Assembly: GCA_951406725.2 (NCBI GenBank)
Contig: OX597832.1
Span: forward strand, 23,994,001-24,058,000
Source of the DNA: Octopus vulgaris
Lineage: Eukaryota
Length of the DNA: 64,000 nucleotides
Direction of reading: 5' to 3'
Shown here: piece by piece, positions 2,899 to 55,500 of the stretch
How the letters are laid out: each line of letters begins with the position of its first letter
Numbering within the stretch: position 1 is the first letter of the stretch
Translations under genes and position numbers: made by a program
The notes under the pieces: generated by a model
The model's input: only the letters and a program-made list of their open reading frames with translations
Told to the model about the DNA's origin: nothing
Database searches by the model: none

Positions 2899-3067
2899 TA
2901 AGATCCACACCATGCCATCACCTACTGAAAGGTACCTCCTTAAGATCCACACCATGTCGTCACCTACTGAAAGGTACCTCCTTAAGATCCACACCATGTC
3001 GTCAACTACTGAAAGGTACCTCCTTAAGATCCACACCATGTCGTCACCTACTGAATGGTACCTACTT
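2899..3067. repeat. Tandem repeat, 4 x 42 bp
   Basis: Unit taagatccacaccatgtcgtcacctactgaaaggtacctcct starts at 2899, 2941, 2983 and 3025. Confidence 0.9.
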
Positions 3068-3236
3068 AACCCTTTTGATACCAACCCGGCTGAAACCAGC
3101 TCTGGCTCTGAGTACAAATGTCTAGCTAGGGTTGAGATGTTTGACTAAGCCCTTTGAGATGGGGACCCAGCATGGTTGTGGTCCAGTGAGTAAAAGGAGG
3201 AGAATAAATAAAAATAAATAAAAGACGAAAGATTAC

Positions 3237-33438: not shown

Positions 33439-33504
33439 TTAATCTTCATCCCAGTCTTTGGTCTCTCGAGTCTTGGGACCACCTGCAGGCTTGGCCATAA
33501 TGAT
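33439..33504 (-). CDS. CCT8: CCT8 exon 17
   Basis: IIMAKPAGGPKTRETKDWDED*. Confidence 0.95.
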   Translation of the reverse strand: MIMAKPAGGPKTRETKDWDED

Positions 33505-34522
33505 CTGCAAAAGAAAAAAAGGAAATGATAAATATTTTATAAAAACTGAACATATCTGAACAAGATGTTGATACTCAATAACTGAATTGTATCATTGTTT
33601 TTAAAAGCTTAATCAAAGAAGTTATTCTCAAACCAGAGATGAGGTTTGTAATACTTGCAGAACCCAGTTAAATGTCTAACAAAGAATCAACAGCAACGGC
33701 CCTGGACAGTTTGGTATGAACAACAGTTTGTAGGAACCACTTTGTCTGAAAGACATCCAGGGCCCAGGTTGTGAAGTTAAAATGGAAATTAGACTTCCAT
33801 TTTCCCCATGGCCAGAGAACATTTTTCATGGAAGACCGGAAACGAACAATCTCACTTGCACGAGGATGACGTTCATTTACAACCATCACATTTTGACACA
33901 CACTCAAGCCTCTGTCAAAAAATCCCTCACAAGGCTTTGGTTAACCCGGGGCTATAATAGATTACACTTGCTCAACGTGCAAGGCAAGGGACTTAACCCA
34001 AAAACACATGGTTGAGGAACAATGCCTACACCTAAACTACATATTCTTTTATTATTTAATTTATTTCAGTCATTTGACTGCAGCCATACTGGAGCACCAC
34101 CTTGAAGGTTTTTAGTCAACTTTGTAAGCTAGGTTACAGGGATGCAAACACACCAACATCAGTTGTCAAGTGATGGAGAAGGAACAGACACAAATATATA
34201 CTTTTATTCTTTTGTTTGTCATTTGACTGCAACTATGCTGGAGCATTGCCTGTAGTTGTGCAAATCAACCCCAGCACTCATTCTTTGTAAGCCTAGTACT
34301 TATTGTAATCAATCTCTTTGCTGAACTGCCAAGTTACAGGGACGGAAATACACCAGAGCTTCTTTCAGTTTCTGACTACCAAATCCATTCAAAAGGCTTT
34401 GGTCAGCCCAAGACTATATAGTAGAAGACACTTGCCAAAGGTGCTGAGCAGTGAGACTGAACCTGGAACCACATGGTTGGGAAGCAAGCTACTTACTACA
34501 CAGCCACTCCTGTGGCTCTCTT

Positions 34523-34554
<32 letters not shown>

Positions 34555-37500
34555 GTGTGTGTGTATATATATATACACACACACACACACACAATTTCTT
34601 TTAGCTTCCATCAACCAAATCCACTCACAAGGCTTTGGTCTGCCTGAGGCCATAGTAAAAGACACCTGCCCAAGGTGCCACACAGTGAGACTGAACCCGG
34701 AACCATGTGGGTGAAAAGCAAGATTCTTACCACACAGCCATGCATGCGTCTATAGCCATACCTCAGCTCTAATTAATGGCATCTATACGTATTACAGAAA
34801 GTATAAAAAGAGCAAGAAGAAGCAACAGAACAAGAGACATATATCCTTACCTGGTCAACATTGAGCACTGTGCAAGCAGCTGTAGTGGCAAACTTCAATA
34901 TCCAGAAAAATTTTGTATAAAGATCTAAAATATTTTTGTCTACTGAATCCATAACACCACCAACATCCTAAAAAATAAAAAAAATTTTTTTAAATAAACA
35001 GCTGAAAGACAACAACATATTAACCCTTTAAAAAAAAAAACCCATCCGTTCGTGGCCGTTTGCCAGCTCTGTCTGGCACCTGTGCAGGTGGCACGTAAAA
35101 AGCACCCATTACACTCGCGGAGTGGTTGGCGTTAGGAAGGGCATCCAGCCGTAGAAACACTGCCAAATCTGACTGGGCCTGATGAAGCCTCCCGGCTTCA
35201 CAGATCCCAGTTAAACCGTCCAACCCATGCTAGCATGGAAAACGGACGCTAAATGATGATGATGATGATTACTGTATTTATTTTGAGATGTTCTTTGTTT
35301 CTTTCAATTAATTTTAAATCTAAGAAAGGATTTAGTAAAATAACTTAGTTATCATTCAGCTAGTGTTACAAACATAAATTGTGACTAAGGTTTGGTGGAA
35401 GATTTTAATTCAAAACTTATGAAAATAAGACATTTGAACTCAGAACCAGAGCTGGTTTTGGCCGGGTTGGTAACGAAAGGGTTAACCCACAATTTGAGGA
35501 ATAATTATTTATACCGAAGTTTTAAAAATTAAAATGTTCACCTTTAGCAATCACGTTATTCTGTCAAAAAGTAATGCTTACTTATCGACATTGTTTTGAA
35601 TTAATCATGCATTGTAATTTAATTTTCAGAATGATTTTGTTGAGCAGGTGTGAGAGGCCAGATATGGCAAATTTGGACACATAACAGGTAGAATGTTTTG
35701 GCTGGATAAAAGGGGTAAAGACACCCCTCCTCCCTAGTCATGAATGACCATGGGATTGCACCGAGAAAGTTACCCAAGGCACAAGTCCAGGCAAGGTTGT
35801 TTATGGAAGACCAGCAGTTGCCCATGGATACCAGCCGCTCCTCTCCAGGCCACTGATGTTATCCAAGGGAAAGGCAAAAGCCGACACAGTTTGGCACCAG
35901 CAACATCACAACTCATTTCTACAGCTGAGTGAACCGGAGCAACATGAAATAAATTGCTTTGCTCAAGAATACAACACAGCTTGGTCTGAGAATCATACTC
36001 TCCACCTCACGATTGTGAGCCCAGTGCTTTAACCACTGAGCCATGCGCCTTTGGCCAGATATGGCTGGATTAAATGCCAAAGAACTGATGGCCTCAACTT
36101 GAAGAAACAAATAATAATATCAACACAGATGTTCTCACTAGTAGCCCTTTTCTTAATTGAGCAACCCCAGACAAAAATCATTTGTTTATTTTCCAGATCA
36201 ATTTCGATTTAAATGTTCCTTGTACAAACACCCTATTGCTTCTTTCATTTTTATTTTCTTTACATACATTATTGAAAGCTTTCTTTCTTCTCTTTTTAAG
36301 TCATTATGAAGAGACTTGAAGGAGATTCGGTAATAAACCAAACCAGAATACCATATTATTTCCAGACTAACCATCCAAGAGGATTCGATTCCTGGAAATC
36401 ATGATGCCACATATAAGCCGCTTTTTTGGGTTGTTATAACTTTACTCATCAAAGTGTTCAACAGCAATACTCATCTCCCTTATTTTCATTATCAACCCTT
36501 TAGCATTCCAGACTACACTGTCAAAAGCAGTACTTATTCACATTGTCTTGAATCAATCATGCAATAATCTCATATCTTTGAGATTTTGATGATGTATTTG
36601 TTTGTAGGATAGTTATGAGACCAGAACTGGCTTGTTTAAACGCTAATGGATTAACACAGAAATATGGAAATTACTATTTACTCCTATTAGGATGGGGGAG
36701 CGAAGAGAAAATAAAAACAAACAAACAAGTCCTCACCTCAATATTCACACCAACATTCTGTTTACCTTCTTGATGAGAGGCATACAACTTGGAAAGAACT
36801 TCTCGGCTCTACATAAAACAGACAAAATAGATGTTATTTTCTTCTTCCTCTGAAGCGTCACAAATATAAAACAGGAATTTAGAGCAAATAAGTTATTTGG
36901 TAAACTGGGAAGAAAAGTAAAGGTGTAAAAAAAAAAAAAAAAAAATTATGAAATTCCCGCTTACCTTTGCACCGGTATTTTCAGCCAAAGACTGAGGAAG
37001 AACCTCTAATGACTGGGCATACTTTTTAATAGCATATTGTTCTAAGCCAGGAATACTCTGCAACAAATAAACACAAAGTTGAAAACCAACTGCAATGAGC
37101 AGTTAATATTCATGCAAAAATGCTATTGTCCAATAGTTATAATCTAAGTTTAAATTGGGCAAAAGAGAAAGAAAAATGTTGTAAACCCAGTCACGTATAC
37201 ACTGTGGAAAGTGGATTAACCCTTTAGTGTTCAGATTACTCTGTTAACTAATACTTTTTCACTCAAATTGTTTTGGATTAATCCTGGATTATCTTACAGC
37301 TTTGAGGTTTCAATGATGTGATTGTTTATTTTTAGAATGGCATTGTAGGTTAGGTGTGAGAAGCCAGATATCGCCAGTTTGAATATAAAACATGTAGAAT
37401 ATATTGGGCCAGCTTTGGCCAGTTTAAACACTAAAGTGTTAAGCTCAGGCCTTACGAGCCCAAGGAATCACGGCACATCCAAGTCCATAAATAATTGCAT

Positions 37501-40500
37501 TACTATCAAAAGATTTTTACCATTAATGTTAGCAGGGAATCATAGTTGCATGTTTTTGTTTTGGAAAAGTAAGCTTCACCTAACATCTTAAATGTTAGTA
37601 GCAAAGTATTTAAGTGAAATAAAAAATCACGATAAATAAAAGACAACCCATTATATTTAACATTAATTTTTCTATGCCAGCATTGCTTAAATGAATATGC
37701 TATTTTCGGCATTGCCTTACAACTGGATGCCCTTTCTGATGCTAACCATTACCAGTTTTCAAGTAAAGGGTCCTTAATTCCACAAGCTTCAAAACCACAA
37801 AACAAGTATGCTATCTATTTGTAGGTGAAATACTAACAGAATATTGCATGAATGTCGTGACTTTTGACTAAGAGGCAGATGTAAACAAACCCACACATGA
37901 TAGATTCTCTTCATGTTTCCACTTGTACTATGATTTTAAATATCAGTATTAAAAAAAACAATAAAAAAAGACAATTCATGATACATACACATCCATATAT
38001 ATCTAAAACCATATATTCACTAACATCCATTTCTACAAGCTAGCATGGGTTAGATGAATATATTTTAGGCATTGTTTTAAATCTGGGCAGAACTCCCCAA
38101 GTAGACTGCTCATATGTCACATTTGTTTTTAGATGACAATGGATTTATTTCTCAGTACACACACACACACATATCCCATACACTGTTGCAAGCAATCAGA
38201 AAGTGGAAGGTCTCCATAGCAGTCAGAGGGGGAATTCCACATCATCATATTTAACGTTAGCAACAGCATTTAATCTAATTGTAATCTTGAAGCTATGAGA
38301 CAACGAATGGTTAATTCAAAACAATGCAAATAAATAAGCATTTCTTTTGATAGAATTATCTGAATGCCACAGGATTAAGGCTTTGGAACACTAAATTTCA
38401 CTTATATTACAATTATAAATATCAGTTTTTAAAGTAAAAAAAAAAAAAGCACAATAAAAAAAGACAATCCATGATACACACACATCTATATATATCATTT
38501 ATTCACTTACATCCATTTCTCGAAGCTAGCATGGGTTAGATGAATATATTTTAGGCATTGATTTATGTATCCCATACACTATTGCACGCAATCAGAAATT
38601 GGAAGGTCTCCATAGAAGTCAGAGGGGGAATTCCACATCATCATATTTAACGTTAGCAACAGATGATGTCAACGAGTAGAAAGTGAACGGAGAGAAATTA
38701 AAATTATTTTCATAGCATTTAATCTAATTGTAATTAGTAAAATTAAATGTAAACTGAAGAGAGTGTTAAGTAGCTTATTTCACGTTAAGCTATAGAATTG
38801 ATTAAGAACCCTTTCTATAATTGTGTGCCAAATATCACATTAATATGTTGATAAGTATAAAAGTTACAGTTGTTTAATGAAACTAGTCTAAACTCATGAT
38901 TCCTTTAGAACTTAATTGAAACTCACGAGGGGTGTATTTTGGTAAGAAATATAATAACGAAAAGGGTTGATATCAGCATTTAAAAAAAATTCATGATACA
39001 CACACATCCATATGTATCTAAAATCATATATTCACTTACATCCATTTCTCCAAGCTAGCATGGGTTAGGTGAATATATTTTAGCCATTGTTTTACAACTG
39101 GGCAGTCCTCCCCAAGTAGACTGCTCATGCGTCACATTCCTTTTTAGATGACAAAGGATTTATTTCTTAATATGCACACACACACACGCATATCCCATAC
39201 ACTGTTGCAAGCAATCAGAAATTGGAAGGTCTCCATAGAAGTCAGAGGGGGAATTCCACATCATCATATTTAACGTTAGCAACAGATGACGTCAGCGAGT
39301 AGAAAGAGAAAGGAGAGAAATTAAAATTATTTTCACAGCATTTAATTTAATTCTAATTAGTAAAATTAAATGTAAGAGAAAAGAGTGTTAAGTAGATTAT
39401 TTCACATTCTCTTTTAAGTCCTCTTTAAATTAAGCTATAGAATTGATTAAGAACCCTTTCTATAATTGCGTGCCAAATATCACGTTAATATGTTGATAAG
39501 TATAAAAGTTACAGTTGTTTAATGAAAGTCTAAATTCATGATTGCTTTAGAATTTAATTGAAACTCATGAGGGGTGTATTTTGGTAAGAAATATAATAAC
39601 AAAAAAGGGTTAATATCAGCATTTAAGGTAAAAAAAAAAAAAAAAAAAAGCACAATAAAAAAAGACAATTCATGATTACACACACATCCACATATATCTA
39701 AAATCATATATTCACTTACATCCATTCCTCCAAGCTAGCATGGGTTAGAGGAATATATTTTAGGCATTATTTTACAACTGGGCAGTCCTCCCCAAGTAGA
39801 CTGCTCATTCGTCACATTTGTTTTTAGATGACAAAGGAATTATTTCTTAGTACACACACACGCATATCCCATACACTGTTGCAAGCAATCAGAAATTGGA
39901 AGGTCTCCATAGAAGTCAGAGGGGGAATTCCACATCATCATATTTAACGTTAGCAACAGATGACGTCGAGTAGAAAGAGAAAGGAGAGAAATTAAAATTA
40001 TTTTCATAGCATTTAATTTAATTGTAATTATTAAAATTAAATGTAAACTGAAGAGAGTGCTAAGTAGCTTATTTCACATTCTCTTTAAGTTAAGCTATAG
40101 AATTGATTAAGAACCCTTTCTATAATTGTGTGCCAAATATCACGTTAATATGTTGATAAGTAAAAAAAAGTTACAGTTGTTTAATGAAACTAGTCTAAAT
40201 TCATGATTACTTTAGAATTTAACTGAAACTCATGAGGGGTGTATTATGGTAAGAAATATAGTAACGAAAGGGTTAAATATCAGCATAAAAAAAAAAAAAA
40301 AAAGACAATTCATGATACACACATATCTATATGTATCTAAAATCATATATTCACTTACATCCATTTCTCCAAGCTAGCATGGGTTAGATGAATAGATTTT
40401 AGGCATTGTTTTTGAACTGGGTAGTCCTCCCCATGTAGACTGCTGATATGTCACATTTGTTTTTAGATGACAAAAACATTTCTTAGTACACACACACGCA

Positions 40501-43500
40501 TATCCCATACACTGTTGCAAGTAATCAGAAAGTGGAAGGTCTCCATAGAAGTCAGAGGGGGAATTCCACATCATCATATTTAACGTTAGCAACAGATGAC
40601 GTCAACGAGTAGAAAGAGAAAGGAGACATATTTAAATTATTTTCATAGCATTTAACTTAATTGTAATTAGTAAAATTATATGTAACTGAAGAGAGTGTTA
40701 AGTAGCTTATTTCACATTCTCTTTTAATAATGTAGTCTTCTGTTCAATAAATTCATCTTGGAGTTATGGCAATTCCCTAAGTATCTAATATCACAGTGAT
40801 TGTTAATAACAATCAGCTTGCCTTGCCTTGCCTTAACCATGAAGACAACTATTCTTCATTTCAAACAGGAATCTTAGAAATGTTTCGATAACAAACATTT
40901 TCCTCACAGCTTGATACTTTAATTCTAACTACACTCACGGAGTGGTTGGCGTTAGGAAGGGCATCCAGCTGTAGAAACATTGCCAGATAAGACCGGAGCC
41001 TGGTGCAGCCCTCTGGCTTCCCAGATCCCCGGTCGAACCGTCCAACCCATGCTAGCATGGAGAACGGACGTTAAACGATGATGATGTAATGTCCAGGATA
41101 GTAATACAAATGCATTATCAGAAGAATTTACCCATAGAGATATCAACATGTTAGCATTTAAATCCACCATATCTTGCCAAAATATGCTGTTTTACATTGA
41201 CACCGATCAGACCCAGCCTTTCACGCCCACCCTGAATGTGATTCTAAAAACAAACTATCACAGCATTGAAAACTTGAAGCTATGAGACAATGGATGGTTA
41301 ATTCAAAACAAGGCAAATAAATAAGATATTTCTTTTGATAGAGTTATCTGAACGCCAAAGGATCAAGGTTTCCACACACTAAATTTCACTTGTATTCAGA
41401 TTTTAAATATCAGTACTTAAGGTAAACAAAAAAGCACAATAAAAAAGACAATTCATGATTACACACACATCCATATATATCTAAAATCATATATTCACTT
41501 ACGTCCATCTCTCCGAGCTAGCATGGGTTAGAGGAATATATTTTAGGCATCGTTTTACAGATGGGTAGCCCTCATACTGCTCACATGTCACATATGTTTT
41601 TAGATGACAAAAGACTTATTTCTTAGTACACACACACACACACACACACGCATCCCATACACTGTTGCAAGCAATCAGAAAGTGGAAGGTCTCCATAGAA
41701 GTCAGAGGGGGAATTCCACATCATCATATTTAACGTTAGCAACAGATGACGTCAACGAGTAGAAAGAGAAAGGAGAGAAATCAAAATTATTTCCATAGCA
41801 TTTAATTCTAATTAGTAAAATTAAATGTAAGTGAAGAGAGTGTTAAGTAGATTGTTTCACGTTCTCTTTTAAGTCCTCTTTAAGTTAAGCTTTAGAATTG
41901 ATCAAGAACCCTTTCTATAATTGCGTGCCAAATATCACATTAATATATTGATAAGCATAAAAGTTACAGTTGTTTAATGAAAGTCTAAATTCATGATTAC
42001 TTTAGAATTTAATTGAAACTCATGAGGGATGTACTATGGTAAGAAATATAATAACGAAAAAAGGTTAATATCAGCATTTAAGGTAAAAAAAAAAAGCACA
42101 ATAAAAAAAATTCATGATACACACACATCATCGTTTAGCGTCCGTTTTCCATGCTAGCATGGGTTGGACGGTTCTACTGGGGTCTGTGAAGCCAGAAGGC
42201 TTCATCAGGCCCAGTCAAATCTGGCAGTGTTTCTACGGCTGGATGCCCTTCCTAACGCCAACCACTCCGTGAGTGTAGTGGGTGCTTTTTACGTGCCACC
42301 CGCACGAGGGCCAGGCGAGGCTGGCAACGGTCGCGAAACGGAAAGTTCTCTTACATGCCACCGGCACTGGTAACACATCTGCAATTTCCATTGATCGATT
42401 TCCATTGATTAAAATCATATATTCACTTACATCCATTTCTCCAAGCTGGCATGGGTTAGATGAATATATTTTAGGCATTGCTTTACAACTGGGTAGTCCT
42501 CCCCAAGTAGACTGCTAATTCGTCACATTTGTTTTTAGATGACAAAAGATTTATTTCTTAATACACACACACACGCATCCCATATACTGTTGCAAGCAAT
42601 CAGAAATTGGAAGGTCTCCATAGAAGTCAGAGGGGGAATTCCACATCATCATATTTAACGTTAGCAACAGACGACGTCAACGAGTAGAAAGAGAAAGGAA
42701 AGAAATTAAAATGATTTTCATAGTATTTAATCTAATTGTATATTCTTATACTTGTTTCAGTCACTTGACTGCGGCCATGCTGGAGCACCGCCTTTAATCG
42801 AGCAACTCGACCCTGGGACTTATTCTTTTGTAAGCCCAGTACTTATTCTATCGGTCTCTTTTGCCGAACCACTAAGTGACGGAGACGTAAACACACCAGC
42901 GTTGGTTGTCAAGCAACGCTAGGGGACAAACACAGACACACAAATATATACACAAATTACAGGGACGTAAATACACCAGAGCTTCCTTCAGTTTCCGTCT
43001 ACCAAATCCACTCACAAGGCTTTGGTCGGCCCGAGGCTATAGTAGAAGACACTTGCCCAAGGTGCCACGCAGTGGGACTAAACCCGGAACCATGTGGTTG
43101 GTAAACAAGCTACTTACCACACAGCCATTCCTGCGCCTATATATATTTTATATAAACAGCTATAAATTAATTTTCAGTACAATTCAATTGATTTGACTTA
43201 CCTCACCAAAAGTAGTAATTCTTTTAGCCAGTTCAATTTCTACTGCACCGGCACCAGCAACCAATCTACTATCCTGCAATTAAATATGCAATATCACTTA
43301 ATATTAATAAAAATACTATTTTACAACAATATATAATGGTACACAAACTAAACCACAGATGTGTATAAAATAGTGCCATAATTTTTAGCCTTCATCCTCA
43401 CAGACAATTAATCATATTTGGTTTACAGAAAGCATTTTTCTGTATTACTACAGTTTATATCTCTGATTCCAGATTTATACGAAAGTTAATAGAAGAGTGT

Positions 43501-46500
43501 GGCTCTCTGTCAGTTATGAGAACAAGTGATGCAGTTGATCTGCTGAAGAGAAGAGCCTACTTGTGAAATCAACATGCAAGGGGCTGGGCACTCCAGACAC
43601 GTGGACCCTTCAGGTATTCTCAAAGAGATTCAGTGTGACACAGATTGTGACAAGGGTAACCATTCGATTTACAGGTACTAATTATTTTTGCCAGCTGAGT
43701 GGACTGGGACAATGTGAAACTGAGCGTCTTGTTCAAGGACACACTGTGCCGCCAGGAATTGAACTCATGAACTTGAGCCAAACACCCAAACCACTAAGCC
43801 ATGCACCTTCAGGAATGTATACACCCCTAAAGAAAGAAAGAAAGAAAAAAAGCAACTTATCTGTATTCAACCTATTTGGAAAGTGAAAGTGAAATAACGG
43901 GTTAAAACCACATCTTCAGTGTATATTAGTCATAATGCTATCAGCAAATTTGGCCCAAGTTCATGCAATAGTTTATATACATACATTCCTGTTTTTTTTT
44001 TTTCTTTAACCCTTTCGTTACTGTATTTATTTTGAGATGCTCTGTGTTTCTTTCAATTATTTTAAATATAGCAAAGAATTTAGTAAAATAACTTAGTTAT
44101 CATTCAGCTAGTGTTAGGAATATAAATTGCAACTAAGGTTTGGTGGTATATTTTGATGCAAAACTTATGAAAACAAGACATTTGTACTACAGAGCCAGAG
44201 CCGGTTTTGGCCAGGTTGGTAACGAAAGGGTTAAATAATAGTACTTGGCTAACAGCATCTTATCAAAATCTCTAATTTCCAACAGGATTGGGAGATGAAT
44301 AGAGAGAAGGCAGTACAGGACTGATATAATAAATAACCAGTGCTTCAGCCCTTACCTTTGTCATAGCTTTAAATGTGTTGACACCGTCATCAATACATCT
44401 TTCAATATCATCTACAATATTGTCAGAGGAACCCCTGACTACAATTGTAGAGATTGCAGTGTCATCCTTCTCTGAAATCAGAGAAAAAATAAATAAATAA
44501 ATAAAAATAAACAATCAGGCTAATAAGTGCACCAATCATTATCAATAATTAAGAAATAAAACGCAGGTGTCCTACTCACCTTGTTTAAATATCACAACAG
44601 CAGTTTCTCCAATTTCATCTACATAAACATGGTCGCAAAACCCCATCTCTTCAGTGGTTGGAACAGTCTAGAATAGAAAATAGCATAATTAAATAGGTCA
44701 GGTGTACTATGAAATAAATATTCTAACATTGCAAGTTTCTCAAATGAGCCACTAACGATAATCCCAGGCACTGTCAAGTATATACTCTTTTTACTCTACT
44801 CTTTTACTTGTTTCAGTCATTTGACTGCGGCCATGCTGGAGCACCGTCTTTAATCGAACAACTCGACCCCGGGACTTATTCTTTTGTAAGCCCAGTACTT
44901 ATTCTATCGGTCTTTTTTTGTCGAACTGCTAAGTGACAGGGACATAAACCCACCAGCATCAGTTGTCAAGCAATGCTAGGGGGACAAACACAGACACACA
45001 CACGCATATATATATATATATATATATATATACGACGGGCTTCTTTCAGTTTCCGTCTACCAAATCCACTCACAAGGCTTTGGTCGGCCCGAGGCTATAA
45101 TAGAAGACACTTACCCAAGGTGCCACGCAGTGGGACTGAACCCGGAACCATGCGGTTGGTAGACAAGCTACTTACCACACAGCCACTCCTGCGCCTATTA
45201 AGTAATTAATTTTTTTTTACCTTTTTAATAAAATCCCTTAATTTTGAGGTGGATTAAGTACGAAAAGATTTTCTTTGAAGTGGGCATAACTAAAATTAAA
45301 AACTGAATTCCAGACTCATCCTTTGATTCAATCAGTGGACTACGGCCATGCAGAGCAGCTGATCGAATGGTTTAGTTAAACTGACCCCAGGACTTATTTC
45401 CACCAACCGAATTCACTCACAAAGCATTGGTCTGTCTTACCCAAGGTGCCTTGTAGCAAGACCAAACCTAAAACCATACAGTGAATTTCTTAACCACATA
45501 GCCATGCCTGCACCTAATAAAAGAACAGGCACCAGTTTTACTTTGATAGTATCTACTTTGACAAATGACATTACTGGTATCAAAAGCTAAATGTTTTACA
45601 ATTTTTTAATCTAGAAATGACCAATAGACCAAATTATGGATTCCATTAGATATTTATAGGAAGATAAGGAAGAAGATAACTGGTCCCTTTGTCAGTTAGA
45701 GTCACTTAGTGGACTGAAACACAGACCAGGGAACATGAGTTCACAAGAACAACCACCCAGGTTCAAATCCTGCTGGAGCCAGGAGTTTGGAAAGCAGCAG
45801 CAGGACACGTAAGAGTCATGACCTGGGTGGGCCTGGCTCCTGCAGAGCATCAGGTATAAGGGCAGAAACACTTGTTGGATGGGAGTTCTTCCTGTGAAGA
45901 TCTCTCCTGCTGTGTGCTTGCCTTGTGGCGAGTTTGTTATTTATTTTCTTTTGTTGATGAAGGCATCAAGAGTTATATAAAGACACCTTTAAATCAGGCT
46001 ATTTTGATCATCACCCAGTTTCATGTAGCACAATTACTTTGTAATCAAGATTAAAACAAGCATATCATCAGCATCATCGTTTAACGTCTGTTTTCCATGC
46101 TAGCATGGGTTGGACGGTTTGACTGGGGTCTGGGAAGCCAAGAGGCTGCACCAGGCTCCAGTCTGTGTTTCTACAGCTGGATGCCCTTCCTAATGCCAAC
46201 CACTCCGTGAGTGTAGTGGGTGATTTTTATGTGCCAGGGGAGGCTGGCACTGGCCACGATCGGTTGGTGGTTTTTATGTGCCACCGACACGGAAGCCAGT
46301 CAAGGCGGTGCTGGCATCGGCCACGTACAGATGGTGCCTTTTACATGCCAGGGTAGGCTGCATAGTTTAGCCTTATTGGTCATATAACAGTTAACTTTCT
46401 AAATAATACTTTAACAGGAGTAATATCAATATGGCATGCATTCCTTTACTCAGTGCCTGCCACCAAGCCTTAGTTTGTACACTCATCCTGCACTTCAAAT

Positions 46501-49500
46501 GCTTACTCTCCCCCTCTGTATGTTGGAAAGTGTAATCGGAGAATCAATCTAACTAACCAATATTCATATCAGCTATTATTATTATTATTATTATGAAGAG
46601 ATTAATGTTAGAAAAAAGACTGTTTACTTACAATTTTGGGGAGGACAGTTGCTGACACGGAACGAGCCAATCTTCTAAGGTCAAATTTGGATAAAAGACG
46701 AACGACTAGCAAGTTATATTTGTTGCAATAGTGGAGACTAAGCTCACCAACTTTACCACCGGTAACAATCACATTAACACCAGAGTCAGCAATGGTTTGA
46801 ATGTGCTGAAATAAAAAACATATGCAATTAGATACACCTCAGGAAAATATTAGGGGGGAAAGAAACAAACAAAAAGCAAAATAACACCATAATCTACCAG
46901 AAGAAAATACAAACTCACCTTTTCCATTTGGTCCTCTTCACCTTTGCTGAAATTCAGCAATTCTTCGGCAGTTTTTATCAGGACAGTTCCCTGTTAAGAA
47001 ATGGATGAAATTAGTAAAACTTTCTTATGAAATCGTTGGTTTAGGTTTTATTGCTCAATTGTATTGACAGATGAGGTGACAAAGACAGGTAAGGATTTAC
47101 ACAAACAGAAAGGTAGGTGGAGAGAAGAGACTAAACACAGGTGGAAGGAGATGAGTAAGTAGATAAACAAATGGAAAAATAGAGATTGCTGGGTAGGTAT
47201 GTAGTCAGATGGATAAGTAGAAAATTGGCGCTGCCCCAACTGGCCTCCGTGCCGGTGGCACGTAAAAAGCACCAACAGATCGTGGCCGTTGCCAGCCTCG
47301 CCTGGCGCTTGTGCCGGTGGCACGTAAAAAGCACCCACTACACTCACAAGGTGGTTGGTGTTAGGAAGGGCATCCAGCCGTAGAAACACTGCCAGATCAG
47401 ACTGGGCCCGGTGCAGCCTCCTGGCTTCCCAGACCCCGGTCGAACCGTCCAACCCATGCTAGCATGGAAAGCGGACGTTAACGATGATAAAATAATTATA
47501 AACCATGCGTTTATTGTGAAATAAATTATTGTCCAGTTGAGAGCTTATTAGCGTTTAAAACTTCTTCAATGTAATATTATTGCAGAAAGAAGTCCACATC
47601 AATAATAAAATCTAAAGTGCAGGCAATAATAGTCATTTTATAAAACCACCAGCCTTTCATGTTAAGGTGAGCAAAAAGGTTTATACTAGAATCGAAATGA
47701 ACCTATTTGTCATATAAGCAGGAGACTTCTGAAAAAGATTCATTGTTTGCCTGCCTTACACTTAGAAATGTTTGGCCACAAGTATTTTCACTCCACCAAT
47801 TACCAGTGGACTGCCTACTCCATGGTTTTGGTGGTTCTTGTCACAAATTCCCTGCTACAAACATCTATAAAAACGTTAAGTAAAAACTTTGAACTGCTTT
47901 AATGAAATTCGAATTATGAAAATACCTAAAACTAAAAAAAAACCTAAAAGAATCAATTCACTCTATTATATTACAATCTTTTACTTGTTTAAGTCATTTG
48001 ATTGTTTGACGTAGATATGTTGGGATACATGGATGCTAATTCTCAAATATAAAGTCCTAAACCAAATATTTTGAGAACGGTTCATGCTAACACTGTCACA
48101 AAAGACAGAATTAGATTTTAAAAAAGAAAAAAAAAGGGAGAAAGCACTTGTCAATTGTATTGTTAGTGAGAGGTGTATAAAAATTTTTTTAAAAAAAGGG
48201 GTCACTCTTACCTTAGTTTCTGTTTGCAAAGAATCTAATGGGCAGGAATAGATAGCTATTTTGCATTTCTCTGCTTTAGTGATATCACCTTCAACTGCAC
48301 GCTTGAAAACCATTCCTTGAAGCACACTGGAATTCATCATACTACAACCCTAAAAACAGAGAAAGACTTAAATATAGAAACTACAAATTTACTCTAAGTT
48401 GCTAAAAACACCAGAAAGATTTTGACACTAAAATTGCTATTTAAAAAAAAATATCAGTGCTTTTAATTCAAAAATAGTTAAAATTATACAATGAACAGAA
48501 TAGAAGGCTGCAAAGCAATCAGTAAAGCCACTAATGAATGAATATAGAAATGAAAACAAAGTGAAGAAAATCTTACCAGAATCTTGCATACTCTGACATT
48601 ATCAACATTGAAAGTATTTTTCATGGATAATATTCCAACTGAAATTGAAGTAAAACATTATTTACTCATGTGATGCATAACTCACAAATTCAGTTGACAT
48701 TTAATTTTACAAGATACTTAGCATAACATAAAAAAAATTTTTAATTTAAGACCCTTCAACTCTGTTACCATAAGCAAAACAAAATAGAACTTGTGACACT
48801 ATTTACAAAAGCCCATCATACACTACATTAAAATGAATACTTTGAATGGTATTTATTCATAAATCAACAAATTTAATGTCAAATTTGTCAAGTAGATTTG
48901 AGCTCAACCATGTACATCTGGTACAACATGTACCATGGTGAAATGACCAAAGCTAATTTCATCTATCAATAGTTATCTTTCTTGATACAGATTCAAAAAC
49001 TTTCTGGATACAGTCAAGGACTTATGATCTGCACTAATTTAAAAAAAAAACGATGCCGCCGTGGTGAACTGATTCTCACTCACAACATCATAAGCAGAAA
49101 GTGTAACCTCTCGAAAGAGCTGTTCTTCACTCCTGCTCCAGAGCATGGGCTGCGGGGTCACTCCGAAAAGCTCTATCTACGACGATTTCATCTCAATCGG
49201 AGAGGGGCTTTCTCTGTCCGGGTTGCGGATCTGTGGAATAAGCTGCCAGACGAGATAGTGAAGATGCCGACAACCGCTCAGTTCAAAGTCTCTCTTGACC
49301 AGAAATGGCCTGAACTCTTTATATGACCACCCTCCCTGTACATAACTCCCTGTCCCCCTACATGGCCTTGCTTTTGTTTTTTGAGCCAATAAAAATTGAA
49401 TTGAACCGAATTGAATACTTATGATGCAGGTACCTACATTTCATTTAATATTTAAGGTGAGGCGACCAAGGTGACCAACCATGGCCAAGAAAAATCAATT

Positions 49501-52500
49501 ATCTGGAAAGGCTTTGGAAACAAACGTTTCAGTAATGATTAGATCAGTATTGGTTCTTCAATGTCTACAAACTTTCTGAAGTAATGAGTTCCATCCTGAT
49601 AAGGATTGGTTTTCAAAGAATCTCAATCGCTAGTACTACTGTGCTGAGACAGTAAGAGGCCTACTAATTACAGAAGACTGTCTGTCAGAATAATTCTGCT
49701 GCTTACCGTTTCAATCATTAAATGAGTTTAGCTACATAAGTGTTTAATTAACCTTTTAGCATTTAAACCAGCCGTATCCAGCCTATCACACCAACCTTTC
49801 AATGCCATGGAAATTGTAGTTAAGATACTTGTGCCGGTGACACGTTAAAAGCACCATCTGACTGACGCCTGTATCGGTGACACGTTAAGGCACCAACCAA
49901 TCATAGCTGTTTGCCAGTCTCCTCTGGCCCATGCCGGTGGCACGTAAAAGGCACCCACTACACCCACGGAGTGGTTGGCATTAGGAAGGGCATCCAACTG
50001 TAGAAACACTGCCAGATCCGACTGGTGCCTGGTGCAGTCTCCTGGCTTCCCAGACCCCAGTCAAACCGTCCAACCCATGCTAGCATGGAAAACGGATGTA
50101 AAACGATGATGATGATGATGACATCAACATTTCAAAGCTATCAGATAATGCATGATTAATTAAAAGCAATGTTAATGAAAAAGCATTACATTTGACAAGA
50201 GAAATCTGGAATGCTAAAGAGTTAAAATAACACAGATTAGGATAACTTATAAAAGATGGAAACAGAACATATAGGTAGGTTTATAACATCTTGGACTAAA
50301 ATGAAATTTGGAGAGAAAAGTGAAAAATACTCACTACAAGCATCAGTAATTAGATCAGATAAGAAATCTTCGGAACCGTATTGTTTGCTCATAACAGCAG
50401 AACGAATTACTTTTCTGACGTCTTCCCTGTTTCGTAGATCTTTAACTTGGCCAACAACAAGTTCTAAAAAAGAAAAAAAAAAAAAAAGTGTAAGGTTTAC
50501 TAAAAGATAACAGATTGAAATTACAACCGGCAACACAGACAAGTCTTCAGTAGGTATTTTATGAAAAAACTCAGTTTTGTAAAAAAAAAAAAAAAAAAAA
50601 TGTATAATTTCTTTCTTTCCTTTTTTTTTTTTTAATGAAAATATATGGGAAGCTTTTGCTACAAGTCACTACATCAGATAAAATTTGTAAAAGCAAGAAG
50701 ACAGTAAACCATACCTGGTAAGTATTCTGTAGCTTTAGCATAAGCAATCTCGTAGCCCTCAATTACTTCAGGGACAGACAAACCCTACAAAAAGAGATTG
50801 GAAACTAATTAAGGAAACTATATACAAACATACATAAATGATTACTTATACAATTAATTAAAAAGTAGTGTTTAGAAATCACTTTGGTCCAACGTACCAA
50901 ACAAAACTTAGGATTTAAAAGGAAGATACACTGGAAAATGTGTCCCTAGGAATAAACCTTCACGAAGTACCCACTTATAACAAAGGAATGAGCCACTGAA
51001 TGTTATGTGGGTTTTTAATGGAAAGATATGAAACGTCAACCATTACCATATATTCAAAGACCATGTTTAAGATTTACGGGTATTCAACAATTGAGAAAGC
51101 AAATTCTCAATTAGTTTGTAGTAATCTCTCTTTGCTTTTAAAATTTATAGCTGAAACATCATTTCTTACAACCAACCATTCAACTGTGAAGTTACTGGTA
51201 TTTATATCATCAACCACACATCTACTGTTGTTCACCACTCACTACATTCACTTCCAACCATCACCAATTCTTTGTTCATATTCTCTTATGAGAATATTAT
51301 ACCTGCTTGCACCTTGTTACCACCATCATCTCTACAGCAAGACACCTGTGCTTGCCCCTCTATTACACATCAACTTTCAACAATGGGCAAAAAACCATCT
51401 CACTTTCAGCTGATAGGGCTTTTATGTTTTCTTTCATTTTCTTATAAATTACTTAGCAGTACCCCTCACCATCAAAAAGAAAAGAAAAAAGCCCTACCTA
51501 GTACACAATGCAAAGTGGTTGGCATTAGGAAAGGTATCCAACCATAGAAACCATACCAAAGCAGATATGAGCAAGAAGTCCTGCAGCTCACTGGCTGCTG
51601 CAACCCATCCAATTCATGCCAGCATGGAAAAATGGATATTGAATAATGATTTCTATCGAGTCATCATTTAACTCCAGCTTTCCATACTGGCATGGGTTTG
51701 ACAGTTTGACAGGAGCTGGCAAATCAGAAGAATGTGCCGAGTTCTGCCTGATCCATCATGGTTTTTTTATGGCCGAATGCCCTTTGTAATGCTAACCGCT
51801 TAACAGCGCTCCCCACTTTTCCACTTTTTATGTGGCACCAGCAGTGAGGTCACCAAATAATAGGAACCATCAACTGAAGGATGGAGTAATAGCGAATGCA
51901 TGCAAGCTAAGTATGAAGCTAAGCACCTCGCTCAAGAATAAAACAATGACAATACAAGGGGGGGAAAAACCCTAAACTGTGTGGCTACATAGTCAGTGAA
52001 GAAGCATCATGACTTCAGATATGCCCCTTCAAATTACATGGAGAAAGACAAACCTAATAATCTGAAGGAAAAAAAAAGAAATAAACACACACACAATACA
52101 GTGGAATGAGATTTTGTCAAATTTTCTGGCATACAAAGTACACTTTTATCCAAAACATTTTCCAAAAGTTACCATGCACCTTATATGATGAAGGTCAGGT
52201 TTTGGCTAGACTTGGTCGGTCATGATATTTATTCTACCAATACCACTATCAACACTTACCTCTACCTTGGATTTTCTTTACCTCTTGGATACTTACCATT
52301 GGCTGCACCTCTCTTTCGCGGATCAAAGTGACTTTGCATTGATGTAAAATATAGCCTACTATAAATAGCTTACCAAAAGGTTATCAGTCTAAACTTTCAT
52401 GGTTCCTATACACAAAAATGTACGAGACATTCAGTTAAGGGATTCAAGGGTTAGCTGCAGTTTTCTTTACTTTTTCGTAGATTGGGTCTTTTAAAATTGG

Positions 52501-55500
52501 GGTGTGCTTTACATGCCCCAAAATATGATGTACCTGCTGAAAGAAATTTTCACTTAGAGCCTTACCATGCGAAGTAGTTCTTCGGCGTGTTCGAGGAAGG
52601 AACCAGCCAGAATCAGAACAGCATTTGTACCATCACCACATTCTTGTTCTTGCTGCTGACTAGCCATCACCAGCATCTTGGCAGCTGGATGTTGAACCTG
52701 AAAGATACAAAATATCACTGTAAAACTTGGATAGATTTCAAACTGAATACAGCTAACTGCATAAGGTGACATAGTCTAGACCAGGGCTATTCTTTATTCT
52801 TTTACTTGTTTCAGTCATTTATCTGCAGCCATGCTGGAGCACTGCCTTCAGTCAAATAGATCCCAGTACTTATTCTTTCTAAGCCTAACACTTATTCTAT
52901 CAATCTCTTTTGCCTAACCACTAAGTTACAGGGACATAAACACACCAATATTGGTTGTCAAGCGATAATGGGAGGACAAACACAGACACACACATGACAG
53001 GCTTCTTTCAGTTTCCATCCACCAAATCCACTCATAAGGTCTTGATTGGCCCAAAGCTATAGTAGAAGACACTTGCCATGGTGCCACACAGTGGGACTGA
53101 ACCCAAAACGAAATGGTTGGGAAGCAAGCTTCTTACCACACAACCACTTCATAGAAAGAAAAATTGTAATATTTTGCGTATTGTTGAAGCATAACCAACT
53201 TAAGAGATTTTTGCCAACATAACATGGTAATCCTGGTTTAGGACGAATGTTGCTGTAATTTAGCCCCAGCTGGAGATGATGTCTCCTGGGGCTAAATTAC
53301 AGTAACATTCATCCTAAACCAGGACTGTCATGTTATGTTGGCAAAAATCTTTACTCCAAAGTACTGTTGCTGAATATCTCTTGTTGTGTGATTTAAAAAA
53401 TAGTAATTTTCTAATAACTAACTTAGTTGGCCTGGAACTATAGCAGAAGACACTTGCCTATGTTGCAAAACAATGGGGAGCAAAGGTTCTTAATTACATA
53501 GCTATGACATACACATTGGGTGTTTGAGATTGCACCCGAGAATGTGTCTATATACACACACACACACACTCAGGACTACATTTTCCAAGGTAGGGTGCAA
53601 TTAGAAAGAAATTTGTTTACTATATAATAGGTCATGTACCAATTTGGAGTTCTTTTCCTCTTATCAATAGATGCAAGAGTGGCTGTGTGGTAAGAAGCTT
53701 GCTTCCTAACCACATGGTTCTGGGTTCAGTAACACTGAATGGTACCTTGGGCAAGTGTCTTCTAAAAGCCTTGAGTGGATTTAGTAGACGGAAACTGAAA
53801 GAAGTCCATCACAAACACATATATATTTGTACCCCCCCCCCCTGCTTGACAACTGATGGTATATTTACGTCCCCATAACTTAGTGGTTTCGCAAAAGAAA
53901 CTGATAGAATAAGTACTAGGCTTACAAAGAATAAGTCCTGGAGTTGATTTATTAAACTAAAGGCAGTGCTCCAGCATGGCTGCAGTTAAATGACTAAAAC
54001 AATTAAAAGAAGAGAAGAATATGCCATTCAAGACATAATTACAAAACACCAGAAGAAACACATCTGCACTAATTTCATTAAGCATTTAAGAATATTAATT
54101 TCAAACGTTGTTCTAGAACTTACAGATAACTCGTTAAGAATTGTAGCAGCATCATTGGTGACAAATAGTTTCTCAATGTGGTTAATGATCATTTTATTCT
54201 GACCTGCAAAAGTTAAAAAAAAAAAAAATTTTTTTAATTAAAAAAAAGAAAAGAGGAAAGCTAATAAATATGCAAAATGTGAAATATTAATTAGAATTTG
54301 AAATTTAAATGCTTATTTTTTTTCTCTATCTGATCTCAATTTTCTTAATTAGGTAGGAGGCTTCAAAAGAGGTCTCAGGGATGGCGTCCCAACCTTTCAC
54401 AGCTAGTTTACCACCACATTTCTTAAAAATTATGGTAGGAACTCTGCAACAGGCAAATCAAAGATTACAGAAACATGAACTACAAAACAATACTGTGTAA
54501 GGAATATTTTACCAGAGAAAGAAAAGCAGTACCTATGAGCCCCAAAGCCTTCAAGAATGGAAGACAAAGTTATCCCGCGAGCAAATAATTAACACAAATG
54601 CCCCCAATACCATGTACCAAAAAGCTAGATGGTTATGCAGACCAGAAAGACAATTAGGTCTACCATTCAAATTGACCAGTTCTTTTCAAAGTATAGAGAA
54701 ACTGTATTACATCTTACCATGAGGACCATAAGCAGACCTGGTTGTTTTCGCTATCTCTTTACAAGCATCAATATTTCTATAGATAGCTTCTTCAAGGCCC
54801 ATATAATGCTGTTAAAATAAAATTAAACACAAATTAAGTTCCAGATTATTAATGAACAGGAAAGAAAAACCAATAACTCTGAAAAAACAAAAACGTTTTA
54901 TTAATTTTGAACATCTAAAAATGTATACGGAACTTAGGGATGCAATCTCAATATCAAAATGAACATCTAAATTTAATAAGAAATTGCCAATAAGTCCTTT
55001 CAGTTTATGAAAGTAAGGAATGAATGAAAGCAAAATGGTTATTATAGATTCTATTTATTAGTTTTACACGGTAGTTCTCTACAGCAGCACTCTTAACCCT
55101 TTAGTATTTAAACTGGCCATATCCGGCCAAAAAATTTAATCTGTTTTTGTTCAAACTGACCAGATCCAGGCCCTCACACCTACCCTACAATGTTATTCAA
55201 CATTAAGTAATTACACCATCAAGATCTTGAAGATATGAGATAATGCATGATTAATTCAAATCAATGTGAATCAATAGGCATTATGTTTGAAAGAATAATC
55301 TGAACACTAAAGGGTTAAGTCTTTGTCTTCTGTTGATTTTTACAAAGAAGCTTTTATACAAGTTAAATAAAGATCATTTGTCCTGTTCAGCTCCTTCACA
55401 GGGTTACTTGACACTTGTATATTATTTAAAAATTGCTATTAAAAAAAAAAAAAAAATAAGACAGTGACATTTGATGAACAAGCATGATTCAGTGTAACAG

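Follow-up and report, generated by a model that had tools for sequence, protein, structure and literature searches.

How can a single intron carry seven nearly identical box C/D snoRNA genes, what would such RNAs guide, and how could they be freed from one another? These questions were raised by a stretch of Octopus vulgaris DNA of 64,000 nucleotides (assembly GCA_951406725.2, contig OX597832.1, positions 23,994,001 to 24,058,000, forward strand), which is referred to below as the window and in which all positions are counted.

Seven copies in intron 13 of CCT8

Matches to TIGR02346 identified the host gene as CCT8 (TCP-1 theta). Its 17 exons formed one open frame with GT-AG introns, and the intron carrying the array was the longest of the 16.

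33439..59569, minus strand: CCT8 (TCP-1 theta), coding sequence of 543 codons and a stop in 17 exons, from TIGR02346 exon matches
43202..43273, minus strand: CCT8 exon 13, from the exon map
37058..43201, minus strand: CCT8 intron 13, 6,144 nt, carrying the array, from the exon map
36965..37057, minus strand: CCT8 exon 14, from the exon map

The junction of exons 13 and 14 across the array was present in contigs of both RNA-like runs (X4 and X12). Together with the TIGR02346 matches and the exon map, this bore out the placement of the array inside a single CCT8 intron given in a preliminary description of the locus. The copies, numbered in the sense of CCT8, are listed below from stem to stem.

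42587..42670, minus strand: snoRNA copy 1, core 42600-42652, D-guide variant A
41662..41745, minus strand: snoRNA copy 2, core 41675-41727, D-guide variant C
40512..40595, minus strand: snoRNA copy 3, core 40525-40577, D-guide variant C
39876..39959, minus strand: snoRNA copy 4, core 39889-39941, D-guide variant A
39202..39285, minus strand: snoRNA copy 5, core 39215-39267, D-guide variant A
38579..38662, minus strand: snoRNA copy 6, core 38592-38644, D-guide variant A, one G-U stem pair
38183..38266, minus strand: snoRNA copy 7, core 38196-38248, D-guide variant C, private linker change

A genome search with the 26-mer from box C to box D' gave seven exact matches, all on the minus strand (0 expected; shuffle maximum 0/100), and the seven copies of the array were the sole matches in the whole genome. 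The units, 925, 1150, 636, 674, 623 and 396 nt in length, all mapped to intron 13, in line with local amplification there. No further C/D gene with a full box layout was found in a scan of the CCT8 introns. In the alignment of the seven 84-nt stem-to-stem sequences, 79 of the 84 columns were invariant. Only 2 of the 53 core columns varied, as described previously: a linker G private to copy 7, and position 4 of the D guide, which was A in copies 1, 4, 5 and 6 and C in copies 2, 3 and 7. In DNA run X18, the summed depth of the core was ∼7x that of the exon; summed depth does not equal copy number, and a stretch that is single-copy in the assembly was similarly high, making this a weak hint.

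Box anatomy and external stem

The sequence search and the predicted folds agreed on seven 53-nt cores with boxes C, D', C' and D, each with a 7-bp external stem and sense to CCT8. The elements are given here for copy 5.

39261-39267, minus strand: box C, from sequence
39246..39260, minus strand: D' guide (antisense element), the same sequence in all seven copies, from sequence
39242-39245, minus strand: box D', from sequence
39230-39236, minus strand: box C', from sequence
39219-39229, minus strand: D guide, from sequence
39215-39218, minus strand: box D, from sequence

The 5' box C (RUGAUGA), the 3' box D (CUGA) and box D' were perfect in all seven copies, and box C' showed two departures from consensus in every copy, with a gap of 5 nt between D' and C'. 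The external stem was present in 7/7 predicted folds, and its single change, in copy 6, still pairs as G-U. The stem has only 7 bp and sits 11 and 6 nt away from the boxes, with just 2 pairs adjoining the kink-turn. We consider it very probable that the array encodes a functional C/D guide.

Constraint on the cores and drift of the spacers

Core and spacer were compared over four clean spacer blocks. The cores had 2/53 variable columns versus 35/134 in one block (Fisher p=1.7e-4) and versus 13/60 in a sub-block of that 134-column block (p=0.004); in two other blocks the counts were 1/53 versus 22/190 (p=0.02) and 1/53 versus 18/140. In the core-versus-spacer comparison proposed in the preliminary description, the cores were thus less divergent, not equal. 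In the shared spacer, each window of 53 columns contained 10-19 that varied. At the spacer rate, 15.8 substitutions would be expected per 53 nt and 2 were observed (Poisson p=2e-5); for the inner copies 2-5 alone, 1 was observed versus 11.5 expected (p=1.3e-4). The earlier claim of selection on every copy is upheld by this deficit, inner copies included, and the substitution deficit in the cores is the real evidence for constraint.

Insertions and deletions had also been read as a sign of selection. Copy 6 is followed by a ∼100-nt deletion beginning 12 nt behind its stem, and a 53-nt deletion upstream of copy 7 extends up to the first stem base. The spacers comprise two unrelated types, tolerate large deletions and contain the following repeats.

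42100..42391, strand not assigned: SINE-like dispersed repeat inserted in the spacer that follows copy 1; 26 overlapping matches in 234 kb of other host DNA
40928..41090, strand not assigned: second copy of this repeat, inverted, in the spacer behind copy 2
38283..38379, strand not assigned: high-copy repeat fragment in unit 6, whose spacer is B-type; unit 2 has a counterpart inside 41151-41367

None of the dispersed-repeat pieces (38283-38379, 40928-41090, 41151-41367 and 42100-42391) lies inside any stem-to-stem unit, and the summed depth of the fragment at 38283..38379 was very high in DNA runs. That insertions and deletions miss the cores was observed, but it was dropped as an independent sign of selection, because the stem-to-stem units make up only ∼13% of the array and roughly a dozen indel events are involved. 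The inverted arms around copy 2 are 84-93% complementary and could form a duplex of 157 pairs, so that copy 2 possibly lies in the loop of a long hairpin.

Similar cores could also arise if only one or two copies were functional and the rest were homogenised by gene conversion, or if the duplication were recent and neutral. Conversion among tandem C/D copies is documented in the available text of PMC11028025. Three of the six informative spacer columns conflict with the split of copies 1,4,5 versus 2,3,7, which implies that some conversion or recombination mixed the units. However, the spacers differ pairwise by 7-15% and the cores by 1.6%, and the near-identity of the units fades within ∼20 nt of the stems. 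Moreover, the A/C core variant tracks spacer columns 43-44 (copies 1,4,5 versus 2,3,7), as expected from descent and not from core-only conversion. We give homogenisation or recent neutral duplication only a slight chance.

Predicted 28S target and probable kinship with SNORD101 and snoR60

Host rDNA was located through 5.8S. The D' guide and host 28S form 8 contiguous Watson-Crick pairs, a bulged A and 3 more pairs, with position 1 mismatched, and D'+5 points to host LSU nt 3218 (RF02543 model position 2129; G000:C20:23991990), the fourth G in a run of five. The energy of this duplex, -18.5 kcal/mol, was the lowest among the 21 anchored candidates from host SSU, 5.8S, LSU and U6. Nevertheless, 64 of 200 shuffled guides reached -18.5 or lower and 138 of 200 reached 8 Watson-Crick pairs somewhere. 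Because the duplex by itself is no better than those of shuffles, the case for the target rests on agreement with a known family site. An 18S site and two other 28S sites were rejected for a lower score or poor pairing at D+5. A genome search for perfect 14-nt complements of the D' guide gave six sites outside the array, none of them in rRNA, snRNA or tRNA.

The known site is that of SNORD101 and snoR60. Chordate and plant D101 guides are aligned by clan CL00074, and SNORD101 is paired with the same 28S stretch in the accessible part of PMC10576143; knock-down of mouse Snord101 led to loss of methylation at 28S-G3283, as stated in excerpts of PMC11863803. The host site reads five G (in 23 of 24 genomic matches) versus A plus four G in the Rfam consensus, and the array guide has five C versus four C plus U in snoR60. 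A host-specific change, 5 C : 5 G, is thus common to guide and rRNA, the guide apparently tracking its predicted target; this compensatory change concerns one position and is set against consensus sequences rather than outgroup molluscs. It is quite likely, given the agreement with the family site, that the array RNA guides 2'-O-methylation of the 28S G equivalent to human Gm3628. With a predicted rRNA target at this site, it would be a housekeeping guide, not an orphan like SNORD115/116. The preliminary description was right about the box C/D anatomy but missed the likely target and kin.

An Rfam search of the whole window at the gathering threshold, suggested earlier as a check, gave no match. 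Under relaxed settings, snoR60 was the sole full-length eukaryotic C/D match, with guide and D' box in register, scoring 16 bits versus a cut-off of 40 (E 0.86). A genome search with RF00186 found nothing above the cut-off, and the array was absent among the 64 candidates scored; two weak matches elsewhere were discarded, neither having the box layout. Zero second loci with the standard guide were found by a genome pattern search whose pattern excludes the array by design. A metagenome scan for intermediates returned eight loci, none with the C'/D half, which were taken as chance. Like SNORD101 (RF00186) and snoR60 (RF00339), the array gene is intronic in a housekeeping host (for human SNORD101 presumably RPS12) and places its D' guide right behind box C, opposite the same 28S stretch and in the same D'+5 register. 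Unlike them, it has a core of 53 nt, compared with model lengths of 73 and 72, and scores below gathering; its guide carries an extra A and a fifth C, fitting the five-G run of the host; and it is present as seven copies in one intron, with CCT8 as host. The array RNA likely works as SNORD101 and snoR60 do, although it falls below the Rfam cut-off.

A second use of the same RNA was also considered, in which the D guide would direct methylation of U32 in U6 snRNA, or the D' guide would act on tRNA-Pro. Between D guide variant A and nt 28-36 of host U6, 9 Watson-Crick pairs form, but 14 of 200 shuffled D guides reached 9 pairs somewhere, three of the seven copies are mismatched beside the U6 site, and a snoRNA guide for U6 Um32 was not found in the literature. 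For tRNA-Pro, the D' guide and the host D arm gave a split duplex of -14.7 kcal/mol, the best among the tRNAs listed (from a sample of 30 Rfam-search loci and a further 6 for tRNA-Pro, none of them a true tRNA-Glu-CUC), and SNORD101-tRNA-Pro chimeras in human are described in the available text of PMC10576143. However, the duplex has only 5 contiguous pairs, in a register one off G18. Such dual use appears improbable.

Proposed release from the intron

The best explanation overall, which we regard as reasonably probable, is that seven constrained, 28S-guiding copies are freed as ∼60-nt RNAs when the excised intron is trimmed; considered solely among the release options, the trimming route stands somewhat below an even chance. 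Starting from a single gene, unequal recombination would have multiplied a 0.4-1.1-kb unit within the intron, the spacers then diverging by 7-15%, and each copy would be transcribed within the CCT8 pre-mRNA. Because the distance to the 3' splice site ranges over 1.1-5.5 kb among the copies (1,138 nt for box D of copy 7), snoRNP proteins would load by a splicing-independent, external-stem route, probably inefficiently; snoRNAs distant from the 3' splice site require extended terminal stems, according to the accessible part of PMC4150776. After debranching, exonucleases would trim to the outermost loaded copies, one loaded copy giving a monomer and several giving a longer snoRNA-ended RNA. If the loading chance p is low, monomers would be produced at 7p(1-p)^6, up to about six-fold above the yield of a single copy, so that every copy, the inner ones too, would be worth keeping. 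By the D'+5 rule, the snoRNP would then methylate host LSU nt 3218, a G. With p as a free parameter, the model gave almost only multi-copy RNAs at p of at least 0.5. The earlier statement that the RNAs must be released by endonucleolysis or extra splicing was too strong, because exonucleolytic trimming with incomplete loading also yields monomers.

Six sampled words were searched in 24 run rows, and at least half of the words were present in 20 of them; the rows came from 10 studies and organisms A-C, and none is registered as RNA. Four of the 24 runs were compared with copy 7 and its flanks. Two were RNA-like and gave low-depth contigs of 334 and 366 nt, which run through the copy 7 core into both flanks; they may be pre-mRNA or DNA and thus uninformative on mature RNA.

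If all copies loaded efficiently, with the same guide and target, endonucleolytic cuts in the spacers could free them as in polycistronic snoRNA clusters. Inner copies constrained as much as outer ones would fit such cuts, and single Drosophila introns hold several H/ACA snoRNAs in the available text of PMC3089462, implying that multiple snoRNAs can be freed from one intron in animals. The inverted repeats flanking copy 2 could give long double-stranded RNA; however, this pair flanks one copy only. The spacer is moreover without a conserved element, varying at 10-19 columns in each 53-column window, and the array tolerates large deletions as well as spacers of two unrelated types. We hold such cutting to be possible but unlikely. 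Efficient loading without an endonuclease would, in the model, force a long product, and two snoRNAs per intron yield sno-lncRNAs through exonuclease blocking, as described in part of PMC11028025. The main product could accordingly be a stable snoRNA-ended RNA of up to 4.5 kb with several snoRNPs, acting as a multivalent guide or scaffold, and inner copies would be selected too if tethered snoRNPs still methylate. However, 87% of such an RNA would be spacer, which drifts and accepts repeats freely, and the guide fits an ordinary rRNA site that in mammals is handled by a monomer. In the form proposed earlier, capped by copies 1 and 7, inner cores should decay, and they do not (p=1.3e-4). We give a stable long RNA a low probability.

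Hidden splicing within intron 13, giving every copy its own intron, was also weighed. A donor-like GTAAGT lies 134-228 nt behind box C in six of the seven units and scores 7.4-8.8 (true donors 4.9-13.1). However, it goes back to a single ancestral site that was multiplied along with the unit and lost in unit 7, the other introns contain 26 donor-like sites in 18.2 kb, or 1.4 per kb, and the contig of run X12 is unspliced through the donor-like position (38012-38266). No acceptor-like site inside the array reached 6, with true acceptors at 9.2-20.7, which counts against the extra splicing suggested earlier and makes this route very improbable. A further, tentative possibility, against which we lean, is that release or use of these one-intron C/D guides follows a scheme undescribed in animals, either endonuclease-cut monomers or a ladder with up to seven active guides, the array being re-amplified independently in related species.

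Comparison with other clustered snoRNAs

Intronic snoRNA clusters exist in rice. Like these and the Drosophila H/ACA clusters, the array places several snoRNA genes, partly duplicates, in one host intron. The C/D class of Drosophila and both classes of Bombyx are one per intron in the accessible text of PMC3089462; unlike in these insects, the array clusters a C/D gene, with repeat-invaded spacers of 0.3-1.1 kb. The Drosophila H/ACA introns in that text make intronic clusters less exceptional than was implied by the earlier remark that tandem C/D arrays are known mainly from imprinted loci. The array resembles SNORD113-116 and rat Bsr in that a single C/D gene was multiplied locally in tandem and kept its cores conserved. 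The members of those arrays occupy repeated introns of non-coding hosts and are orphan and imprinted, as summarised in part of PMC11028025, whereas the array lacks a repeated exon or internal acceptor and has a protein-coding host and a guide with a predicted rRNA target. As in sno-lncRNAs (PWS region, SLERT, LNC-SNO49AB), at least two snoRNAs per intron can shield the RNA between them; unlike those, the array consists of seven identical guides, and any long product of it is a prediction.

No report of the locus, or of a comparable mollusc C/D array, was found in the literature outside subscription papers. The SNORD101/snoR60 guide, known from chordates and plants, would be extended to a likely mollusc member, in a very short form overlooked by standard Rfam annotation. 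The A/C and copy-7 variants can mark which copies are expressed, and the three release routes foresee different bands on one northern blot. With seven constrained C/D copies in one intron, the octopus CCT8 gene offers a natural test of how the animal rule of one C/D snoRNA per intron can be broken.

Array anatomy and copy number

TIGR02346 was found to match CCT8 exon after exon on the minus strand, giving a model of 17 exons with GT-AG introns and a single open frame of 543 codons. The longest intron harbors the snoRNA array in sense orientation, and exon 14 was joined directly to exon 13 in the contigs of both RNA-like runs examined (their RNA nature is predicted).

37058–43201, minus strand: CCT8 intron 13, 6,144 nt

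A 26-nt pattern spanning boxes C to D′ gave seven mismatch-free matches on the minus strand of the window and none in 100 shuffles. A DNA search of the own genome (2.8 Gb), in which repeat counts are lower bounds, returned the pattern only at the same seven array places. Each core measured 53 nt and ran from box C to box D: a 15-nt element separated box C from box D′, a 5-nt linker joined box D′ to box C′ (which departs from the consensus at two positions), and an 11-nt element led on to box D. An external stem of 7 bp closed 7/7 copies. The start-to-start spacing was 925, 1150, 636, 674, 623 and 396 nt. The preliminary description of the array was borne out in its copy number, box order, core length and stem. 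Because the spacers differed by 7–15% in pairwise comparison, an assembly artefact of identical copies was ruled out. The array of seven C/D copies is real, selected and unconventional in its arrangement. SNORD113–116 and Bsr occupy repeated introns of non-coding genes, a layout different from that of the array, which is more like that of intronic snoRNA clusters. The Drosophila intronic clusters described in PMC3089462 are H/ACA, with C/D genes staying one per intron.

Core constraint and spacer drift

Among the gap-free alignment columns of six copies, 2/53 varied in the core and 35/134 in the downstream spacer that these copies share (Fisher p = 1.7e-4); for all seven copies, the figures were 2/53 in the core and 13/60 in a spacer sub-block (p = 0.004). 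The upstream flank varied at 13/57 columns, the four A-type spacers at 22/190 (p = 0.02) and the two B-type spacers at 18/140, each compared with 1/53 in the core. It was calculated that 15.8 core substitutions would be expected at the spacer rate, whereas 2 were observed (p = 2e-5); for the inner copies 2–5 alone, the values were 11.5 and 1 (p = 1.3e-4). This deficit, inner copies included, upheld the earlier proposal of purifying selection on every copy.

The A/C variant at position 4 of the 11-nt D element tracked one spacer split (copies 1, 4, 5 versus 2, 3, 7). Three of the six informative spacer columns were at odds with this split, so that a degree of sequence exchange between units must have taken place. 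Of two deletions, one reached right up to a stem (0 nt) and the other stopped 12 nt short of one. Dispersed repeats occupied four spacer places, none within any stem-to-stem unit, as had been noted for the cores; this is weak evidence alone, because the units make up only ∼13% of the array.

Predicted rRNA target

An Rfam search of the window at the gathering threshold gave no match. At a relaxed threshold, plant snoR60 (RF00339, clan CL00074) aligned over the full core, with guide and D′ box in register, at 16 bits (E 0.86); the cut-off being 40 bits, membership of CL00074 failed by score. The target search used a single rDNA unit of the host genome and compared 21 anchored candidates in SSU, 5.8S, LSU and U6. 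The host rRNAs are strongly enlarged (SSU 2,643 nt, LSU 4,891 nt), and the genome holds at least 40 5.8S-like and at least 24 28S-site copies, many of them dispersed on other contigs. Further loci noted in the window and the host genome (contigs C1, C12 and C20; L017, L018 and L029 are pieces of its DNA) were as follows.

L017 4317–9207 and L018 1537–4179 (C20): rDNA array, 18.4-kb period
C1 113180000–113335000, both orientations: tRNA-Pro cluster, about 30 genes, some divergent
C1 139423726–139428422: tandem run of five U6 genes with equal scores, about 1.1 kb spacing
L029 (C12 25267077–25270148): seven tRNA-Cys-like genes in 3 kb, two with changed anticodons
Window 2899–3069: tandem repeat, 42-nt unit, 4.1 copies, 95% alike

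The 15-nt D′ element paired with LSU nt 3215–3225 through eight contiguous Watson-Crick pairs and, after a bulged A, three further pairs, with the lowest energy of the 21 candidates (−18.5 kcal/mol). The D′+5 position was G3218 of host LSU, corresponding to RF02543 model position 2129. PMC10576143 presents a clan CL00074 alignment of D101 guides from chordates and plants, and assigns human SNORD101 a pairing to the same 28S stretch; its text names Gm3628, while a row of its automatic supplement marks an A two places further on. According to PMC11863803, where the oligonucleotide carries the same guide, knock-down of mouse Snord101 completely abolished methylation at 28S-G3283 (that paper's numbering). 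PMC7668251 cautions that naming within the SNORD101/snoR60 family is unsettled. Among shuffled guides, 64/200 equalled the D′ duplex energy somewhere and 138/200 reached eight pairs, so that what makes the duplex persuasive is solely its agreement with the site known for the family. The host 28S has five G at the target in 23 of 24 genomic matches and the array guide five C; the corresponding letters are A plus four G in the Rfam LSU consensus and four C and U in snoR60. This resembles a compensating change of a single position. Family and pattern searches of the own genome found no other candidate guide for this 28S site. As judged from the sequence, the rRNA target is probably the conventional 28S site of SNORD101/snoR60, and the array RNA is predicted to work like these snoRNAs.

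Additional targets appeared unlikely. In its A variant, the D element made nine pairs with host U6 (D+5 at U32), a number reached by 14/200 shuffled D elements across the target set; the duplex had a mismatch beside the site in three copies, and a literature search on this U6 target found no paper. With tRNA-Pro, the D′ element formed a split duplex (−14.7) having only five contiguous pairs.

Related DNA in organisms A–C

The 96-nt query was present in organisms A, B and C, the sources of the sequencing runs, which are close relatives of the host. Among 40 of the 112 rows for four runs, the core differences were only the two positions known to vary within the array, and the flanks differed at many places. 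For organism C, DNA run X18 gave a summed depth of 130–620 over window 37416–37940 and of 35 over the adjoining exon; 37450–37700 is single-copy in the host genome. Organism C may have amplified a longer unit including the 37416–37940 part of the intron, depth being a weak measure.

Release of the copies

Splicing-dependent processing is favoured by a distance of roughly 75 nt to the 3′ splice site, far less than the 1,138–5,542 nt that separate box D of the copies from it. Distant snoRNAs depend on extended stems (PMC4150776). Extra splicing, suggested earlier as a release route, was unsupported: a matrix trained on CCT8's own 16 introns gave no acceptor-like site above 6 in the array (true acceptors 9.2–20.7), and the one recurrent donor-like site had a score common in other CCT8 introns.

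38510, 39039, 39719, 40358, 41502 and 42430, minus strand: donor-like GTAAGT, recurring in six units
40928–41083 and 42126–42279: dispersed repeat, inverted pair flanking copy 2

Joined to the exon-14 acceptor, the donor-like site would extend exon 13, with a probably unstable product. A long duplex formed by the inverted pair in intron RNA would be a candidate substrate for editing or for RNase III.

In standard release, the intron is debranched and exonucleases then trim it as far as the bound snoRNP proteins; an intron with two snoRNAs yields a sno-lncRNA (PMC11028025). If each copy were loaded with a low chance p, trimming of the excised intron would leave monomers at a yield of 7p(1−p)^6 per intron, with multi-copy RNAs as by-products. 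By arithmetic on an assumed p of 0.05, the yield was 0.26 for the array versus 0.05 for one copy, the maximum being 0.40 near p = 1/7. Endonucleolytic release would account for the same data and stays in contention; it has precedent among clustered snoRNAs, but a conserved spacer signal was not seen. A multivalent long RNA is also a conceivable product. Loading at low p followed by trimming would explain why the gene was amplified and why the inner copies are under equal constraint, with no new enzyme needed.
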